Assembly (NCBI GenBank): GCA_001798135.1
Contig: MGRJ01000020.1
Location: 31,513 to 95,512 of the forward strand
DNA length: 64,000 nt
Direction: 5' to 3'
Source: Deltaproteobacteria bacterium RIFCSPHIGHO2_02_FULL_40_28
GTDB lineage: Bacteria; UBA10199; 2-12-FULL-40-28
Below the pieces are notes generated by a model. That model was not told where the DNA came from, did no database searches, and worked only from the letters and a program-made list of their open reading frames with translations. Each line of letters begins with the position of its first letter. Position 1 is the stretch's first letter. Shown here piece by piece: positions 11,034-63,878 of the stretch. The translations under genes were made by a program, and so were the position numbers.

Positions 11034-11873
11034 GTGAAAGTTATCACCAACATACCGCAAATGCAGAAAATAAGTTTTGCCTTAAAAAAGAAGGGCAAAA
11101 AAATCGGTGTTGTACCCACCATGGGTTATCTGCATGAAGGGCATCTTTCGCTTATTCGCATAGCTCAAAAATATTCAGATATTGTTATCCTCACTCTTTT
11201 TATTAATCCCACACAATTTGCAGCCCATGAGGATTTAAACCGCTATCCACAAGACATTCCGGGAGATTTAAAAAAATGTAAGAAAGCTGGGGTTGATTAT
11301 GTTTTTTCCCCCAAAATTTCAAAAATGTATCCTAAAAATTTTGAAACTTATGTAGAAACTACACAGATATCACTTCCTCTTTGTGGAGGCTCACGTCCCG
11401 GTCATTTTCGTGGGGTAACAACCATTGTTTCAAAATTATTTTTAATTACCCAGCCTACTGTGGCTGTGCTTGGGAAAAAAGATTTTCAACAATTAGCTGT
11501 TATTAAGCGCATGGGTGCTGATCTTAATTTTCCTATTCGTATTATAGGAGCCCCTATTGTGAGAGACAAAGATGGTTTGGCATTAAGTTCCAGAAATGTT
11601 TATTTAACTTTAGAAGAAAGAAAAAATGCAGTTGGGATTTCTAGTGCTCTTTTTTGGATTCGAAATCAAATTAAATCGGGTGAGACGCGCATTGCTATTT
11701 TAATGAGTCATCTTAAAAATAAACTTTTTTCTTGTGGGTTAAGACTCGATTATGCTGAATGTCTTCATTCAGAAAACTTAACTCCATTAACTCACTATCA
11801 AAAAGGTAAAACCCTTTTTGCCGTCGCTTGTTTTGTAGGAAAGACGCGGTTGATTGATAATATTGTAGTGTAA
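11034..11873 (+). CDS. panC: Pantoate--beta-alanine ligase
   Basis: VPTMGYLHEGHLSL signature with N-terminal spacing matching PanC; GTG start at 11034 (alternative ATG at 11061). Confidence 0.9.
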   Translation: MKVITNIPQMQKISFALKKKGKKIGVVPTMGYLHEGHLSLIRIAQKYSDIVILTLFINPTQFAAHEDLNRYPQDIPGDLKKCKKAGVDYVFSPKISKMYPKNFETYVETTQISLPLCGGSRPGHFRGVTTIVSKLFLITQPTVAVLGKKDFQQLAVIKRMGADLNFPIRIIGAPIVRDKDGLALSSRNVYLTLEERKNAVGISSALFWIRNQIKSGETRIAILMSHLKNKLFSCGLRLDYAECLHSENLTPLTHYQKGKTLFAVACFVGKTRLIDNIVV

Positions 11874-11886
11874 GGAAGATATCTCT

Positions 11887-11992
11887 GGTCAGGGGGGAGT
11901 ATTTCTTTCGTCCCTGCGGAACTCCTCGCCCTTCGACTTTGCTCAGGGCTCGTCAGACAGTCCTCGCTCCTCAAGAAACACTCCCCCCTGCC
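11887..11992 (-). repeat. Family-A GC-rich structured repeat (conserved core, complementary flanks), copy 1
   Basis: Reverse complement carries the core CGAGGACTGTCTGACGAGCC...GGCGAGGAGTTCCGCAGG flanked by inverted arms (GGTCAGGGGGGAG / CTCCCCCCTGCC); intergenic after panC. Confidence 0.85.
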
Positions 11993-12061: not shown

Positions 12062-13351
12062 ATGATTGAAATCATCTCTGCAAAATATCTTGTTTCAATG
12101 GCTGCCCCGCCTCTTTTTGATGGAGCCATGGTTATTGAAAATGGTGAGATAATCGATACAGGTCCAGAATCCCAGATGCTTGATCGTTATCCCGATGCTC
12201 TCCATGAAGACTATGCCAATCAAGCTATTTTACCTGGGTTTATTAATGCTCATGTTCATTTGGATATGGGGCTTCATACTAATTATCCCCAGGATCCCGT
12301 TCGTTCTATGGTAGCCCAACCTCATTTTGTAGAATGGCTTTTGGGTTGTATCGAATATAAAAAAAATACTTCTTCAGAACGGTTGCGTGAAGCAGTGGAG
12401 CAGGGGATTGCAGCTTGCATTGAATCGGGTATTACTTGTGTGGGGGATATGGGAAATTATGGAGGCATTGTTCAAAGCTTAGAGCAAGTAGGTTTGCGGG
12501 GAGTTGTTTTTCCTGAAGTTTTAAGTTACGACAGTAGCGTAGCAAGAGATTTATTTGAAACAGCTTTAGCCATTGTAGAAAAATATCTGGAGTATGATTC
12601 TGAGCGCATTAGTGTGGGGCTTGGGCCTTATTCGCCCTATACTTTGTCTCGCAATATTTTACGTATTTTATCGCAGTATTCACGTACCTCTCGTATTCCT
12701 TTGATGATGCAGGTGGCTGAAAGTTTTTCAGAGATGGAATTTTTTTATGATTCTACGGGTGATATTGCCACTTTGCTTTTCCCTAATATTGGCTGGGGTG
12801 AAAATCTTCCACCGCAGTTTCGCAAAACTCCCGTTCAACACCTGGATGAAATTGGATTTTTAGAGGCCAGTCCCATTTTGGTGGGTTGTGTCCATGTTAC
12901 TCCCCAGGATTTGGATCGTATTGAGAGAAGCAAGAGTAAAATTATTTGGTGTCCTCGTTCTAATTCTTATTTGCGTCAGGGGGTAACACCCATTAAATTG
13001 ATTCGACAAAAAGGCATTCCTTTGGCTTTAGCAACTGATGGTCTTTCTTCTACCAATACTCTTTCGCTTTGGGATGAAATGCGTTTTGCCCATCAACAAT
13101 CTAAGGAGCATGGTTTTGGTCTTACTGCTCAAGACTTATTGGAGATGGTAACCATTCGTGCAGCGGAAATTTTGATGTTGGGGAATGAAATAGGAAGTTT
13201 AGTGCCTGGCAAAAAAGCCGACTATATCGTGGTCGATTTAGTTGGACATGAAAAAGAGGTTCCTCTTTATGATCATCTTATTCAAAAAACCAGAGGCTAT
13301 CATGTTCGTAAAGTTGTAGTCGAAGGCCAGTCTTTAAAACAAGTAAATTAA
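12062..13351 (+). CDS. Amidohydrolase-superfamily protein (chlorohydrolase/deaminase-like)
   Basis: Metal-binding HxH in GFINAHVHLDMG; 429 aa, typical of nucleoside/aminohydrolase-type amidohydrolases. Substrate not assignable. Confidence 0.75.
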   Translation: MIEIISAKYLVSMAAPPLFDGAMVIENGEIIDTGPESQMLDRYPDALHEDYANQAILPGFINAHVHLDMGLHTNYPQDPVRSMVAQPHFVEWLLGCIEYKKNTSSERLREAVEQGIAACIESGITCVGDMGNYGGIVQSLEQVGLRGVVFPEVLSYDSSVARDLFETALAIVEKYLEYDSERISVGLGPYSPYTLSRNILRILSQYSRTSRIPLMMQVAESFSEMEFFYDSTGDIATLLFPNIGWGENLPPQFRKTPVQHLDEIGFLEASPILVGCVHVTPQDLDRIERSKSKIIWCPRSNSYLRQGVTPIKLIRQKGIPLALATDGLSSTNTLSLWDEMRFAHQQSKEHGFGLTAQDLLEMVTIRAAEILMLGNEIGSLVPGKKADYIVVDLVGHEKEVPLYDHLIQKTRGYHVRKVVVEGQSLKQVN

Positions 13352-20267: not shown

Positions 20268-20443
20268 GTCATTCCCGCGAAGGCGGGGGTCCATCTTGGT
20301 TCCCCTCCTTTGTAAGGAGGGGTTAGGGGAGGTAGAGAGTTTAGTAAGACTCTACCCCCTCCAACTCCCCCTTACAAAGGGGGAGAGTACAGATGGATCC
20401 CTGCCGGAGTTTACCCCTGCGAAGGCAGGGGCAGGGATGACAC
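20268..20443. repeat. Composite palindromic element: family-B terminal inverted repeats enclosing family-C hairpins
   Basis: Left end GTCATTCCCGCGAAGGCGGGGGTCCATCT, right end AGATGGATCCCTGCC...GGGATGAC. Interior has perfect hairpins CCCCTCC-TTTGTAA-GGAGGGG and CTCCCCC-TTACAAA-GGGGGAG. About 175 bp, GC-rich in an AT-rich context. Confidence 0.85.
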
Positions 20444-28817: not shown

Positions 28818-28849
28818 TCTATGTGACTTTGTTATTCCCTGCATCATTT

Positions 28850-28917
28850 GTCATCCCCGCGCAGGCGGGGATCCATCTTTGAATTTAAGATGGATTCCCA
28901 CCTTCGTGGGAATGACA
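28850..28917. repeat. Family-B palindromic element
   Basis: GTCATCCCCGCGCAGGCGGGGATCCATC...GATGGATTCCCACCTTCGTGGGAATGAC: two inverted hairpin units; intergenic after the ROK kinase gene. Confidence 0.85.
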
Positions 28918-37646: not shown

Positions 37647-38352
37647 AGTCATAACTCCCCCAATTCTGGTGATGATTCATGGAGCTGGTGGAAATTATAC
37701 CAACTGGCCCCTTTCTTTAAGAAAGTTGCCAGGCATCAATATTGTAGCTCTTGATTTGCCAGGGCATGGTAAATCTAAGGAAGAGGGTTTTGATTCTACC
37801 AACGCCTATGCTCATTTTGTTTCCAATTTTGTTACAAATTCCAATCTTAAAAAAGTGGTGCTTGTAGGACATTCGATGGGTGGCGCCATTGCCATGTACG
37901 AAGCTCTTGGCAAACCAAGTTGGCTTTGTGGTTTGGTTTTACTAAGTACGGGGGCTAAACTCAAAGTATCTTCTCAATTGATGGAATTGTTAAAAAATCA
38001 TTCGAAAAATATCAGTTCGTTTTTATCTCAAAATTTATTTAGTACTCATGCTGATCCTTTGCTTATTTCTGAAAGTGAAAAACAATTAAGTAAAATAAAT
38101 CCCAAAGTTTTACTGGGTGATTTTGTTGCTTGTGATAATTTTGATATCAGAGATCGTATTAAGGAAATTAAAATTCCCACCCTGATTATTGTTGGAGAAA
38201 AAGATTGTATGACGCCCCCATCTTATTCACAATTTCTGGCTGAAAATATTTTGGGTGCACAACTTGAAATCATAAAAGACGCAGGACATATGGTGATGTT
38301 GGAGAAACCTGATGAGGTTTCGAAATTAATTGTAAGTTTTATAAATCGATAG
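37621..38352 (+). CDS. Alpha/beta-fold hydrolase
   Basis: Nucleophile elbow GHSMGG, HG oxyanion region (IHGAGGN), C-terminal His (GHMVM). Confidence 0.75.
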   Translation: MQKQKTQYKVITPPILVMIHGAGGNYTNWPLSLRKLPGINIVALDLPGHGKSKEEGFDSTNAYAHFVSNFVTNSNLKKVVLVGHSMGGAIAMYEALGKPSWLCGLVLLSTGAKLKVSSQLMELLKNHSKNISSFLSQNLFSTHADPLLISESEKQLSKINPKVLLGDFVACDNFDIRDRIKEIKIPTLIIVGEKDCMTPPSYSQFLAENILGAQLEIIKDAGHMVMLEKPDEVSKLIVSFINR

Positions 38353-38437
38353 CGGGTCCTGCCGCCAGGAGGTTTCCCGCTGGTGCTCGCCCTAAGGCTG
38401 CGCGCCATCGGAAGCCCTCCTCCTGGCGTCACCCGCT
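38351..38437. repeat. Family-E GC-rich palindromic element (opposite orientation)
   Basis: AGCGGGTCCTGCCGCCAGGAGG...CCTCCTGGCGTCACCCGCT; termini are inverted complements of each other and match the ends of the 30745 element. Confidence 0.8.
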
Positions 38438-39299: not shown

Positions 39300-40355
39300 C
39301 TACTTTAAAGGCTTTAATCTCTCAGGTCTAAATTCACGCAAAATTTTTCCAGCCTGCCACATTTCTTGGTTAGCCATGGTTTCTAATTCCTTTTCCAACT
39401 TTGGTCGATAATCAGATTTAGAATTAGCTTCGATGGTAATTCTGGCTTCGTTTCCTGTTTGAACACTTTTGTAACATTCCTCAATCACAGGTTTAATGGC
39501 TTTTTCAAAACGAGGGGCCCAATCAAGTGCTCCTCTTTGAGCTGTTGTAGAACAATTAGCATACATCCAGTCCATGCCTTTTTCACCAATTAAGGGGTAC
39601 AAGCTTTGAAAAGCTTCTTCGATGCTTTCGTTATAAGCTTCCGAAGGAGAATGACCATGCGCTCTTAAAACCTCATATTGTGCCTTAATAGCGCCTTGAA
39701 TGAGCCCCATCAAAATACAACGCTCACCTGTTAAATCACTGTGCACTTCTTTTTGGAAGGTGGTTTCAAAAAGATGCCCCGAGCCAATGGCAATACCCAC
39801 AGCTTGCACACGCTCGCAGGCACGGCCTGTTGCATCCTGATAAACAGCATACGAGGCATTAATTCCTCGGCCATCTAAAAAGTGGGTGCGTACAGTTAAC
39901 CCACTGCCCTTGGGGGCACAGAGAACCACATCCACATTTTTAGGAGGGATAATTTTGGTATCGTTAGAAAAAACGATGCCAAATCCATGAGAGAAGTAAA
40001 GGCAATCACCTTCATTTAAACATTCTTTTAATTTGGGCCAAAAGGCAATTTGGCCTGCATCAGAGAGAAGAAACTGAATGAGGGTACCTTTTTTAGCAGC
40101 TTCTTCCATTTCAAAAAGATTTTTTCCTTCAACCCAACCCTCTTTTTGAGCCTTATCCCAACTGGATCCTTTTCTTAAACCTACAATGACATTAAAACCC
40201 TGATCTCTTAAGTTAAGGCTTTGCCCGCGACCTTGGGGGCCATAACCTAAAATGGCAATCACTTCATTTTTGAGTATTTTTTGTAATTTTTCTTTGGGGT
40301 AATCGCCTCTTTCGATAATAGTTTCTTGATGACCTGCAATATTGATTGTTTTCAT
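39300..40355 (-). CDS. ilvC: Ketol-acid reductoisomerase
   Basis: NADPH-binding AILGYGPQGRGQSLNLRDQGFNV, class-I KARI layout. Confidence 0.85.
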   Translation of the reverse strand: MKTINIAGHQETIIERGDYPKEKLQKILKNEVIAILGYGPQGRGQSLNLRDQGFNVIVGLRKGSSWDKAQKEGWVEGKNLFEMEEAAKKGTLIQFLLSDAGQIAFWPKLKECLNEGDCLYFSHGFGIVFSNDTKIIPPKNVDVVLCAPKGSGLTVRTHFLDGRGINASYAVYQDATGRACERVQAVGIAIGSGHLFETTFQKEVHSDLTGERCILMGLIQGAIKAQYEVLRAHGHSPSEAYNESIEEAFQSLYPLIGEKGMDWMYANCSTTAQRGALDWAPRFEKAIKPVIEECYKSVQTGNEARITIEANSKSDYRPKLEKELETMANQEMWQAGKILREFRPERLKPLK

Positions 40356-40460
40356 AAAATCTCCTTAAGGGTGGTCTATTTTTTCCTTTAAAACCAAGGG
40401 AGAAGGGCATAACATGCCTACTTTACATGGGTCAAGACCCAACACATAACAAATACAAAG

Positions 40461-40551
40461 CTGACAGGGGGATTCCTTTCGGGCCCTGCGGAACTCCTCG
40501 CCCGAAGGCTCGTCAGACAGTCCTCGGTCCCTTCAGGAACCCCCCTGCCAG
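40461..40551 (-). repeat. Family-A GC-rich structured repeat, copy 2
   Basis: Same core (reverse orientation) with different but mutually complementary arms (CTGACAGGGGGATTCC / GGAACCCCCCTGCCAG); between divergent ilvC and the ABC permease. Confidence 0.85.
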
Positions 40552-40565
40552 CTTCATACCCATCG

Positions 40566-41486
40566 ATGTTTTTTTATTTTTTTAAACGATTATTACTCTC
40601 TATTCCGGTGATGTTTGTGGTTGTTACCCTCGTATTTTTTTTATTACGTCTCATTCCTGGTGATCCCATCGATTTTATTTTGGGAGAAACAGCCCCTCAG
40701 GCTGATCGCTTGGCCCTAGTTACTAGCCAAGGGTTTGATGAGCCTCTTTTGAAGCAATATTCTCATTTTTTAAAAGATATTTTTGAAGGAAATTTAGGGC
40801 AATCTTATTTTACCCGAAAATCTGTAGGAGATCTGATTGGTGAACGCTATCCTCAAACCGTCAAGTTGGCCCTGGTAGCCATGGTTTGGGCCATTTTATT
40901 TTCTATTCCTACTGGTGTGTTTGCCTCTGTTTTAAGGGGAAAATTTTTTGATCGTTTACTTTTGGCTTTATCCCTTGTTGGAATTTCTGTTCCTAGTTTT
41001 TACTTGGGGCCACTTCTTGTTTTGTTATTTTCAATCAAGCTCGATTGGTTTCCTGCATCAGGACAAGATTTATCAGGCTCAATCATTCTACCCAGTTTAA
41101 CTTTGGGTTTGGCCATGGCTGCTATTTTAACACGCATGACAAGATCTTCTATGTTGGATATTTTAAATTCAGATTATGTGCGTACAGCTCGTGCTAAGGG
41201 GCTTTCTTTTTTTAAAGTTGTTTTTAAACATGCCTTGGGAAATGCACTTGTTCCCATTGTTTCGCTTATAGCTCTTCAGTTTGGAACTTTACTGGCTGGA
41301 GCTATTGTGACTGAAAAAATTTTTTCATGGCCAGGTTTAGGGAGCCTTCTTTTAGAATCCATTGGTCGTAGAGATTATGCCGTGGTTCAGGGTTGTTTAA
41401 TGGTAATTGCATTAGCTTATGTGGTGGTAAATTTGTTGGCAGACTTGGTATTAACGAAAATTGATCCAAGAATACGCCTCAAGTAG
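40566..41486 (+). CDS. ABC transporter permease (Dpp/Opp B-type)
   Basis: Six-TM permease with the type-1 ABC transmembrane signature region (SDYVRTARAKGL). Confidence 0.85.
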   Translation: MFFYFFKRLLLSIPVMFVVVTLVFFLLRLIPGDPIDFILGETAPQADRLALVTSQGFDEPLLKQYSHFLKDIFEGNLGQSYFTRKSVGDLIGERYPQTVKLALVAMVWAILFSIPTGVFASVLRGKFFDRLLLALSLVGISVPSFYLGPLLVLLFSIKLDWFPASGQDLSGSIILPSLTLGLAMAAILTRMTRSSMLDILNSDYVRTARAKGLSFFKVVFKHALGNALVPIVSLIALQFGTLLAGAIVTEKIFSWPGLGSLLLESIGRRDYAVVQGCLMVIALAYVVVNLLADLVLTKIDPRIRLK

Positions 41487-42274: not shown

Positions 42275-42406
42275 GCGGGTGACACGGCCTTGTCCCCTCC
42301 CCCTTGAGGGGGGAGGGTTAGGGAGAGGGTGAAAATTTTGAATTACCCCTCACCCTGCACCCTCTCCCCCAAGGGGAGAGGGGAAGAATGGGCAGGACCC
42401 GCTGAC
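42275..42406. repeat. Composite element: family-E-like termini enclosing family-D hairpins
   Basis: Starts GCGGGTGACACGG, ends GGCAGGACCCGCTGAC; interior hairpins CCCCTCCCCCTTGAGGGGGGAGGG and CCCTCTCCCCCAAGGGGAGAGGG; between dppC-like and nagZ. Confidence 0.8.
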
Positions 42407-54574: not shown

Positions 54575-54674
54575 GATGAGGGTCACACTAAATGTGGTGG
54601 GCGAGCTTGTCAAGAGCATGAAATCCTTTCTTTACTTCAGAGAAGTAGCAATTTAAGAAGAATAATGAGGGGAT

Positions 54675-54762
54675 GAGAGGGAGGCTTTTGGAGGTTTCGA
54701 GGACTGTCTGACGAGCCTTCAAGGCGAGGAGTTCCGCAGAAACCGGAAAAAGTCTCCCTCCC
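54675..54762 (+). repeat. Family-A GC-rich structured repeat, copy 3
   Basis: Core CGAGGACTGTCTGACGAGCCTTCAAGGCGAGGAGTTCCGCAG with arms GAGGGAGGCTTTT / AAGTCTCCCTCC; between acnA and the secreted-protein gene. Confidence 0.8.
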
Positions 54763-54777
54763 AGCACCATAAATTTT

Positions 54778-55545
54778 ATGAAAAATATTTTTTTCATTTT
54801 TTCTTTTCTTTTTTCTATTTTTTACTTTTCACTGCTGGCTCACGCTGGTTTGGTGATTACAAGCCGTTACGAATCACAGGCTGATAAAATTCAATCAACC
54901 GATAAAGCCATGATAGAAAAAGATCGCATGCGGGTTGATGTTTCTACCCCTGGAAATAATCATCTCATGATTTATCGAGCCGATTTAGGAAAAATGTGGA
55001 TTATTGATCCAGAAAAAAAACAGTACCAAGAACTTTCCAAACAAGAAATTACAGGCATGATGCAAAAAATGCAAGAAGCCACCAAAAGACTTGAAGCTCA
55101 AATGGCATCGATGCCGCAAGCTCAAAGGGAAGCCATGAAAAAAATGATGCCTCAAATGCCAAAGCCAAGTGTAGTTACTTATCAGAAAAAAGCTGATGGG
55201 ATTAAAATTGGAAATTATACTTGTACCCTCTATGAGGGATTTGTGGATCAGAAAAAAGTAAGTGAAATGTGGACAACAGATTTAAAAGCTTTATCTATGA
55301 GCCCAGAAGATTTTGCAGTGATGAATTCTTTTGGTGAAATGTTTGAAGCTATTTCAAAAGATTTTACATCACCCTATAAAATTAGTTCTCTCGGGCTTCC
55401 TATTCGCATGGCTCAATACAATCCCGATGGAAGCCAAAAACATTTAACCGAGGTTGTTTCCATTGAAAGACAAAATACAGATCCCGCTCTTTTTGAGCTT
55501 CCAAAAGATTTTGTAAAACAAAGCAGGGATGATTTTGATGAGTAA
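54778..55545 (+). CDS. Hypothetical secreted protein
   Basis: Signal peptide (FFIFSFLFSIFYFSLLAHA) then a 230-aa Met/Lys-rich domain; no family recognised. Confidence 0.5.
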   Translation: MKNIFFIFSFLFSIFYFSLLAHAGLVITSRYESQADKIQSTDKAMIEKDRMRVDVSTPGNNHLMIYRADLGKMWIIDPEKKQYQELSKQEITGMMQKMQEATKRLEAQMASMPQAQREAMKKMMPQMPKPSVVTYQKKADGIKIGNYTCTLYEGFVDQKKVSEMWTTDLKALSMSPEDFAVMNSFGEMFEAISKDFTSPYKISSLGLPIRMAQYNPDGSQKHLTEVVSIERQNTDPALFELPKDFVKQSRDDFDE

Positions 55546-55861: not shown

Positions 55862-55905
55862 AAAAATTAAGAACACATCTAAAAACTCAATTAAAATCTA
55901 AAATT

Positions 55906-55974
55906 GTCATTCCTGCGGAAGCAGGAATCCAGGCTTTTCAAGAGTTTCTGGATCCCTGCTTTCGCAGGGATGAC
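55906..55974. repeat. Family-B palindromic element
   Basis: GTCATTCCTGCGGAAGCAGGAATCCAGGC...GGATCCCTGCTTTCGCAGGGATGAC; sits between cutA and the truncated ATPase ORF. Confidence 0.85.
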
Positions 55975-55990
55975 ATAGAATAGTTTTTTA

Positions 55991-61571: not shown

Positions 61572-62819
61572 ATGTTAAAAATCCCCTCCAATGGCAAAAA
61601 AATAATTCTCAAAAATGGTGTTCTTTCTGTGCCCGATGATCCCGTTATTCCCTTTATTGAAGGGGATGGTACGGGTCCCGATATTTGGAAGGCTTCGGTT
61701 TATGTTTTTGATGAAGCTGTTAAAAAAGTTTATGGTGGAAAGCGTAAAATTAATTGGCTTGAAGTGTATGCTGGTGAAAAAGCTAGAGCTACCTATGGCA
61801 AAGATTGTCCTCCCAATTTTCTTCCTCAAGAAACCTTGGATGTGATCAAAGAATACTTGGTTGCCATTAAAGGGCCACTTACTACTCCTGTAGGTGAAGG
61901 TTTTAGAAGTTTAAATGTAAGTCTTCGGCAAGAATTAGATTTGTATGTTTGTCAGCGCCCCGTGCGTTATTTTACCGGAACCCCTTCTCCTGTTAAGCAA
62001 CCTGAAAAAATTGACATGACAATTTTTCGGGAAAACACCGAAGATATTTATGCAGGAATTGAATGGGCAGCCAAATCAGTTGAGGCAAAAAAGCTTATCA
62101 ACTTTTTACAGAAAGAACTGAGAGTTACAAAAATTCGTTTTCCAGAAAGCTCTGGTATTGGAATTAAGCCTGTTTCTGAAGAAGGCACCAAACGCTTGGT
62201 ACGAGCTGCAATCCAGTATGCTCTTAAAAGAAAACGTAAAAGTCTCACTCTGGTGCATAAGGGCAATATTATGAAGTACACTGAGGGGGCTTTTCGTAAT
62301 TGGGGATACGAATTAGCTAAAGAAGAATTTGGAGATCAAACTGTAAGCTGGGATGATTGCAATGGCAAGCCTCCTGCAGGTAAGTTGCTTATTAAAGATG
62401 CCATTGCTGATGCTTTTTTACAGCAAATTCTTCTTCGGCCCGATGAATTTGATGTGATAGCTACCCTTAATTTAAATGGGGATTATCTTTCAGATGCATT
62501 GGCTGCTCAAGTAGGGGGAATTGGCATTGCCCCAGGTGGAAATATTAACTATGTAACAGGGCACGCTCTTTTTGAAGCTACACATGGCACAGCTCCCAAG
62601 TATGCAGGACTTGATAAGGTTAATCCAGGTTCACTGATTTTGTCGGGAGTGATGATGTTTGAATACATGGGATGGCAAGAAGTAGCCGATGCTATTGTAC
62701 AGGCGCTGGAAAAAACCATTCAAAATAAAACAGTAACGTACGATTTTGAAAGATTGATGCAGGGTGCAAAATTGTTGAAGTGTAGCGAATTTGGAAAAGA
62801 GATTGTAAGAAACATGTAA
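61572..62819 (+). CDS. icd: Isocitrate dehydrogenase (NADP-dependent, prokaryotic type)
   Basis: IDH blocks including [26 protein letters not shown]; ATG 61572 follows the sdhB stop. Confidence 0.9.
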
Positions 62820-62837
62820 TAGATATCGTGATTATTG

Positions 62838-63878
<1,041 letters not shown>

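Follow-up and report, generated by a model that had tools for sequence, protein, structure and literature searches.

The window analysed here is a 64,000-nt stretch of DNA from the groundwater bacterium Deltaproteobacteria bacterium RIFCSPHIGHO2_02_FULL_40_28 (GCA_001798135.1, contig MGRJ01000020.1). The analysis identified it with contig MGRZ01000012.1 of GCA_001798365.1, and it also occurs in JGI metagenome contigs with the C687J prefix, which derive from the Rifle aquifer. The closest mdh homologues that carry a name are labelled 'Deltaproteobacteria bacterium'. The window contains four hairpin elements of about 95 nt (Family A), all intergenic:

11887-11992, (-) strand: copy 1, a 106-nt hairpin with a long variant of the tip hairpin P3 (GCCCUGAGCAAAGUCGAAGGGC); core match to covariance model R1 at 11904-11976; between panC (stop at 11873) and an amidohydrolase gene (start at 12062), antisense to both.
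40459-40553, (-) strand: copy 2, a 95-nt hairpin with a cUUCGg tip; R1 match at 40476-40536; between the divergent genes ilvC (start at 40355, - strand) and an ABC permease gene (start at 40566, + strand).
54675-54762, (+) strand: copy 3, an 88-nt hairpin; R1 match at 54688-54749; between the divergent genes aconitase (start at 54619, - strand) and a DUF4412 gene (start at 54778, + strand).
62836-62935, (+) strand: copy 4, a 100-nt hairpin with a cUUCGg tip; R1 match at 62856-62916; between icd (stop at 62819) and mdh (start at 62952), sense to both.
62865-62907, (+) strand: the conserved core as seen in copy 4, CGAGGA-CUG-UCU-GAC-GA-G[CC-UUCG-GG]C-GA-GGA-GU-UCC-GCAG, comprising helix P2 (GGA/UCC), a 3-bp helix UCU/GGA, a 3-nt bulge GAC, tandem G.A/A.G pairs, an invariant G-C pair, and the variable P3 hairpin.

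Both halves of the core, GGACTGTCTGACGAGCC and GGCGAGGAGTTCCGCAG, occur exactly four times in the window, against 0.01 and 0.05 occurrences expected from shuffled sequence, respectively, and the core is identical in the four copies. Model R1, run with filters off, found the same four sites and no degenerate ones. Each copy folds into a single long hairpin with a stem of 19-23 bp; MFE values range from -42 to -58 kcal/mol, with z-scores of -4.1 to -7.3 against shuffles. The arms differ between copies, yet stay complementary within each copy.

The first-pass annotation had described four GC-rich copies with an invariant core and co-varying complementary arms. That observation is confirmed, and its hairpin limits agree with those given above to within 2 nt. 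Two details require correction: the "short variable loop" at the center is a base-paired hairpin (P3) of variable length; and only copies 1 and 4 follow a gene's 3' end, whereas copies 2 and 3, also said to lie next to gene ends, sit between divergently transcribed genes, next to start codons.

The window contains other palindromic repeat families. A second family of GC-rich hairpins of about 100 nt (42276-42385 and 20287-20387) has GGGG/CCCC-rich arms (e.g., CCCCTCCCCCTTGAGGGGGGAGGG...), and is shared at 92-95% identity with the related aquifer loci L043 and L027 (loci retrieved from outside the window are numbered with the prefix L). A third (38338-38436) has the outer shell GCGGGTCCTGCC...GTCACCCGC. 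The same shell forms the outer arms around the Family A copies in L017, L037, and L020, where the core lies in both orientations relative to the shell (L017 and L037 compared with L020), suggesting nesting or inversion. A fourth (55905-55978 and 28847-28917) is built from ATTCC(C/T)-N8-(G/A)GGAAT-like units (TGTCATTCCTGCGGAAGCAGGAATCCAG...) that resemble neisserial dRS3 repeats, and is shared with L033, L039, and L040.

Family A is not confined to this genome. An exact-pattern scan of one genome per GTDB species found the core in five contigs from four MAGs of unrelated phyla, named Marinobacterium, Campylobacterota, Saccharimonadales, and Eubacterium, the last with three tandem copies. A scan of JGI metagenomes found 34 more loci, most of which come from a few aquifer genomes with arms like those of the window (about 30 copies). 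The shared sequence is (C)GAGGA-CUGUCUGACGAG-[variable hairpin]-CGAGGAGUU-CCGCAG. Because both collections were scanned with exact core patterns, invariance of the patterned positions is partly by construction; however, CGAG upstream and GCAG downstream, which were not part of the search patterns, are also conserved in the independent lineages. By contrast, arms and tip hairpins are unrelated between lineages, and in the other phyla the whole hairpin is 130-180 nt long.

In the rumen Eubacterium-type contigs (L005 1210-2107; L024 7900-9050; L029 150-1560), the element is a branched hairpin of about 160 nt repeated in tandem three to four times, in units of 243-351 nt. These contigs also contain extra 54-nt sub-repeats and a small hairpin (CCGAGGACAGAGUCCGCGG) that looks like a core with the center deleted; L029 has degenerate units as well.

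The family matches no catalogued RNA. Rfam 15 gave no hits at gathering score in the window, and permissive searches (E<10 on copy 4; E<5 on L001-L005; E<10 on L048 and L049) gave only unrelated low-score noise. BLAST searches of plasmid, phage, and E. coli genome collections found nothing, which also rules out ERIC. Literature searches by core sequence, by accession, and by topic returned nothing relevant. A scan of viral contigs with the relaxed core pattern gave two hits (L006 2442-2480; L007 4188-4226; ...RLSDEAVAMGGEEFLRY...), both inside a phage protein-coding gene and lacking the GGA/CGCAG flanks. These are chance coding matches, and they warn that the two half-sites alone are not diagnostic without the flanks.

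A covariance model (R1) built from 28 sequences recovered 50 copies in 390 kb. Three of these have C21 changed to U (CUGUUUGACGAG), which retains a U.G pair with G58. Among hits above 35 bits, the only core changes seen are compatible with the fold: C21U; and, in L049, replacement of the G28-C54 pair by G.A, at what would be kink-turn position 3b.3n. In two contigs, L019 and L042, CCGG/CCGG replaces GGA/UCC and the stem runs straight into CUGUCUGACGAG and CGAGGAGUU. This variant supports helix P2, defines the minimal core, and rejects an alternative helix CUGU/GCAG.

Counted on 44 distinct sequences, the basal helix and the tip helix P3 covary. Pair 10-69 is CG 18, GC 12, UA 7, and AU 1; pair 29-53 is CG 31 and GC 8. 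The covariation score is 0.220, against 0.084 in shuffles and at most 0.081 when partners are slid. Among 23 copies of the window's type, 10 of 24 predicted arm pairs show changes on both sides, although copies within one lineage are related, which inflates covariation counts. The two inner helices never vary apart from C21U. The arms of related copies are homologous to their ends and differ mainly by point changes compensated on the opposite arm, which rejects the idea that the outer stems are captured target hairpins.

The fold is strand-specific. The strand carrying CUGACGAG is more stable in 39 of 41 copies, by 9.4 kcal/mol on average; it has 146 G.U pairs and 6 A.C 1x1 mismatches, against 35 A.C mismatches on the reverse strand. 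The internal loops are purine-rich on both sides, and many tips are cUUCGg, a tetraloop that is specially stable in RNA but not in DNA. These features favor a folded single strand. RNA is more likely than single-stranded DNA, but this is not proven, since G.T pairs and tandem G.A pairs also are stable in single-stranded DNA. The same evidence makes it very unlikely that the element is a double-stranded DNA site for a nucleoid protein, regulator, or recombinase embedded in a palindrome: a duplex site would neither produce the strong asymmetry of G.U against A.C nor require the arms and P3 to stay complementary, and the core itself is not palindromic. Occurrence in promoter regions (copies 2 and 3) would fit such a site. 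Inversion of the whole Saccharimonadales block described below, along with the two relative orientations of core and outer shell, would fit recombination at inverted repeats.

By inspection of the alignment, the invariant part reads as a kink-turn: helix UCU/GGA; bulge GAC; tandem G26.A56 and A27.G55; then G28-C54, which opens the variable hairpin. These elements are invariant in 43 of 44 distinct sequences, and the C21U variant keeps the C helix as U.G. This is a pattern match only; neither a kinked fold nor binding by an L7Ae-family protein was assayed. A second register also can be drawn, with the bulge GAG on the 3' strand; the L049 variant fits the first register better.

The conserved loops might instead form the active site of a small self-cleaving or otherwise catalytic RNA of an undescribed class. 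The conservation is ribozyme-like, with about 30 invariant loop nucleotides between freely varying helices across phyla; the distribution is patchy and multi-copy; tandem arrays occur in the Eubacterium MAG; and the 5' strand contains CUGACGA, which fits the hammerhead heptamer CUGANGA. However, no Rfam ribozyme model matches even at E<10, and the hammerhead reading fails. A hairpin-ribozyme reading (N*GUC opposite AGGA) also is rejected, because no loop-B domain is conserved. Cleavage was not examined experimentally, and this explanation is considered very unlikely. Similarity to Tn3-type or Tn5-type ends (TCTGACG, CTGTCT) was judged coincidental, because these motifs lie at the center of the element and not at its ends. 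Box C/D and TIGR-like arrays were considered and set aside; a CsrA sponge (two CGAGGA sites) ranks low, because the first site is replaced in L019 and L042. An integron attC site is not supported either: attC sites have conserved R/L boxes at the hairpin foot and a variable center, which is the opposite pattern; there is no GTTRRRY motif; and the window copies are not in cassette arrays.

Copies occur in every kind of intergenic spacer: co-directional sense, 14; co-directional antisense, 6; convergent, 6; divergent, 7. Their neighbors are housekeeping genes such as sucCD-ndk, rho, purH, and metG, and no transposase, reverse transcriptase, or other recurrent gene lies beside any of about 50 copies in about 390 kb of loci. 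No orthologous flanks were found among the aquifer loci (about 30 copies), so no claim is made about how distant those genomes are from that of the window. Several independent copies (in L003, L038, L026/L004, L018, and L019) lie near DNA-repair or replication genes: xth is adjacent or interrupted in two unrelated lineages; a DEDD-type exonuclease gene lies 215 nt downstream in the Eubacterium MAG; a rarA-like gene is within about 0.5 kb; and an nth-like gene is about 1.8 kb away. These genes were identified by inspection of the translations, and significance was not assessed.

A rival explanation is a generic mRNA-end element, in which the hairpins would act only as 3' stabilizers, terminators, or processing sites, as described for REP sequences, with no specific partner and with a core that is a frozen accident of descent. 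Copies do sit at operon borders, for example [element]-sucCD-ndk-[element]-rho and icd-[element]-mdh; the sense bias is 14 to 6; and U-rich tracts follow the long hairpins in L001, L002, and the Saccharimonadales loci. (Promoter and terminator scans around the long copies were uninformative.) However, none of the four window copies has a T-run within 2 nt of the stem, as an intrinsic terminator would, and two lie in divergent promoter regions. Moreover, a frozen accident cannot explain an identical core next to unrelated arms in five phyla, nor 85-90% identity where neutral sites are saturated, as in the Saccharimonadales locus described below. This explanation is unlikely.

Other comparisons reveal insertion and turnover. 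The icd-mdh spacer is 132 nt in the window, but only 25 nt and empty in L047, a relative with 82% identical mdh. In two other relatives (L045 9855-10000; L046 9932-10000) the same spacer holds unrelated palindromes, so spacers in this lineage appear to be colonized repeatedly by different hairpin families; these 48 kb of relatives' sequence contain no Family A copy. In contig L038 (67-159), a 92-nt copy plus one A sits in the sense orientation inside an exodeoxyribonuclease III (xth) gene. The 93-nt insertion is a multiple of three, but carries an in-frame stop; removing it restores an uninterrupted reading frame that aligns with the L003 protein (E = 6e-61). Whether insertion duplicates the target is left undecided by what was seen: L038 shows no clear duplication; a possible GTAT flanks copy 2; and the empty sites are too diverged to align. 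Together, these points show mobility, but no mechanism is visible.

A different behavior is seen in Saccharimonadales. Homologues of the xth gene in L003, the Saccharimonadales locus from the species scan, led to two further genomes (L048 and L049), with xth 92% and 88% identical. Both carry the same hairpin of about 175 nt downstream of xth (R1 scores of 59 and 38.5 bits). The hairpin lies in a non-coding block of about 480 nt (L003 4480-4960; L048 3380-3860; L049 3370-3850) that also contains a second long hairpin with its own covariation, is bracketed by CTTACTTTTG-N5-CAAAAGTAAG hairpins, and has no Rfam match. The whole block is inverted in L003 relative to the other two genomes. The Family A hairpin is 85-90% identical between the three genomes, whereas xth third codon positions are only 59-67% identical and the linkers 33-55%; its 60 pairs are kept, with 2 double and 8 one-sided compatible changes. 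Thus, the entire hairpin is under purifying selection there. The block is missing from relatives with 85-87% identical xth (L050-L056), one of which (L053) has a diverged copy elsewhere that lacks the tip hairpin. No link was found between "domain 1" of this block and the other loci.

The main rival view is purely selfish DNA: a non-autonomous transposable hairpin, in the manner of a MITE, REPIN, or PATE, moved in trans by an enzyme encoded elsewhere that recognizes the folded single strand. The core would be the binding or cleavage site of this enzyme, and the arms would need only to pair. The multi-copy distribution in both orientations, the absence of shared flanks, the empty orthologous sites, the clean insertion into xth, nesting inside another palindrome, and the other palindromic families in the window all fit. 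A strand-specific fold also is what HUH or tyrosine enzymes acting on single-stranded DNA would require. However, no transposase lies next to any copy; no clear target-site duplication was seen; the termini are the most variable part and the center the most conserved, the reverse of MITEs and REPs; copies that look single in the short MAG contigs of three phyla keep an intact core; and the cUUCGg tips and the syntenic, selected Saccharimonadales locus count against it. This rival is considered unlikely, though less so than the others.

Chance, coding origin, and all catalogued RNA families are excluded. The reading offered by the first-pass annotation, selection for a folded RNA or DNA structure (small RNA, REP/MITE-like element, or protein-binding site) rather than random repetition, is supported by the compensatory arm changes, the strand-specific fold, core conservation across phyla, purifying selection in Saccharimonadales, and presence or absence at orthologous spacers. 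It had proposed that a lack of additional copies and of covariation would count against it; instead, about 50 copies were found and covariation holds. That reading was deliberately broad, and the present evidence does not single out one of its options. Its specific suggestion of REP elements with a RAYT transposase is not supported, because the arms, not the center, are the variable part.

The preferred explanation, held tentatively, is that Family A is a dispersed, insertion-polymorphic hairpin whose function lies in the fold of the CUGACGAG strand, most likely as RNA when the spacer is transcribed. In this view, the long stem is constrained only to pair. Near its tip it presents an almost invariant purine-rich module: helix GGA/UCC, a small loop, helix UCU/GGA, a 3-nt bulge, tandem G.A pairs, a G-C pair, and a hairpin of free sequence. 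This reads as a kink-turn flanked by a second loop. The module presumably docks a trans-acting factor, either protein or another RNA, a requirement that would keep the core constant while arms and tip drift; and the element presumably multiplies as a non-autonomous unit, since no copy carries a gene. The analysis itself demonstrates the repeat, the fold, the covariation, the strand bias, the cross-phylum core, presence or absence at orthologous sites, and conservation at one orthologous locus; that the element acts as RNA rather than single-stranded DNA, the kink-turn geometry, the existence of a partner, and the mode of spread are inferences. There are no expression data of any kind, mechanism and transcription are untested, and neither a partner nor a mobilizing enzyme was found. 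Copy 1 is antisense to both neighbors, and with co-directional orientation only 14 to 6, many copies would not give the folded strand as RNA unless there is antisense or independent transcription. The conservation pattern resembles that of ribozyme cores, aptamers, or protein-binding sites, whereas the genomic behavior is that of a non-autonomous mobile repeat; the preferred explanation combines the two.

A bolder possibility, less likely than not but with a real chance of being correct, is a previously undescribed class of structured RNA with a kink-turn-like core of about 45 nt presented on a long hairpin. It would be kept as a conserved single-locus non-coding RNA in Saccharimonadales (a Candidate Phyla Radiation lineage), amplified as tandem units in a rumen Eubacterium, and proliferating as a mobile 95-nt module in aquifer bacteria. 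That would make it a functional RNA domain, possibly a ribonucleoprotein site or a new ribozyme, that spreads like a transposable element across bacterial phyla.

Palindromic intergenic repeats usually are lineage-specific and defined by their arms. This family instead keeps an identical internal-loop core in at least five phyla while everything around the core changes, a pattern otherwise seen in ribozymes, riboswitch aptamers, and protein-binding RNA sites. If the core is a docking site or a catalytic center, it points to an unknown partner or activity shared by very different bacteria, including the reduced-genome Saccharimonadales. It also would provide a clean case of a functional RNA domain behaving as a mobile element, one short enough to be tested directly.

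REP and REPIN elements of Enterobacteria and Pseudomonas, mobilized by RAYT transposases, likewise are intergenic, multi-copy, palindromic, present in both orientations, and often co-transcribed with neighboring genes, and they too form hairpins of roughly 100 nt. In REPINs, however, the arms (REP sequences of 20-40 nt with a 5' GT(A/G)G) are conserved and the center is free, whereas here the center is nearly invariant, the arms drift, and GTAG at the hairpin foot is seen only in L038, where the hairpin ends with CTAC. REP families are lineage-specific, whereas this core is shared across phyla. No RAYT gene, which for REPs is a Y1 HUH gene in the same genome, usually flanked by REPs, was seen, although only the window and fragments of other genomes were examined. 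Bacterial MITEs (Correia/NEMIS, RUP, ERIC, and similar) also are non-coding units of about 100 nt with inverted-repeat arms, insertion polymorphism, insertion close to or into genes, and long hairpins in transcripts. They have conserved terminal inverted repeats, target-site duplications, and a parent IS; in Family A the outermost stem is the most variable part, no duplication is evident, and no longer element sharing the ends was found in the loci.

The hammerhead ribozyme core shares CUGACGA followed by a variable stem-loop (CUGANGA plus stem II), and bacterial hammerheads can be multi-copy and sometimes tandem. Here, stem II is followed by GAGGAG rather than GAAA; only 4 nt lie between P2 and CUGACGA, so there is no stem I; and there is no three-way junction and no Rfam hit. 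Kink-turn motifs (ribosomal Kt-7, box C/D RNAs, and several riboswitches) share the sequence pattern of a Watson-Crick helix, a 3-nt bulge, tandem sheared G.A/A.G, and a second helix; in the alternative register, C|GAG|GA|GUU resembles the Kt-7 sequence C|GAA|GA|ACC. However, an additional 10-12 invariant nucleotides surround the motif, bacteria of most of these phyla have no known L7Ae-type protein, and a dispersed repeat is a context unlike any described kink-turn RNA. Finally, orphan RNA or single-stranded DNA motifs from comparative genomics, such as Drum, STAXI, and HEARO, are all in Rfam, and none matched or showed similarity to Family A. Like it, they are conserved structured motifs of unknown function, with patchy phylogenetic spread and sometimes several copies; and proximity of several copies to DNA-repair genes is reported for Drum as well.
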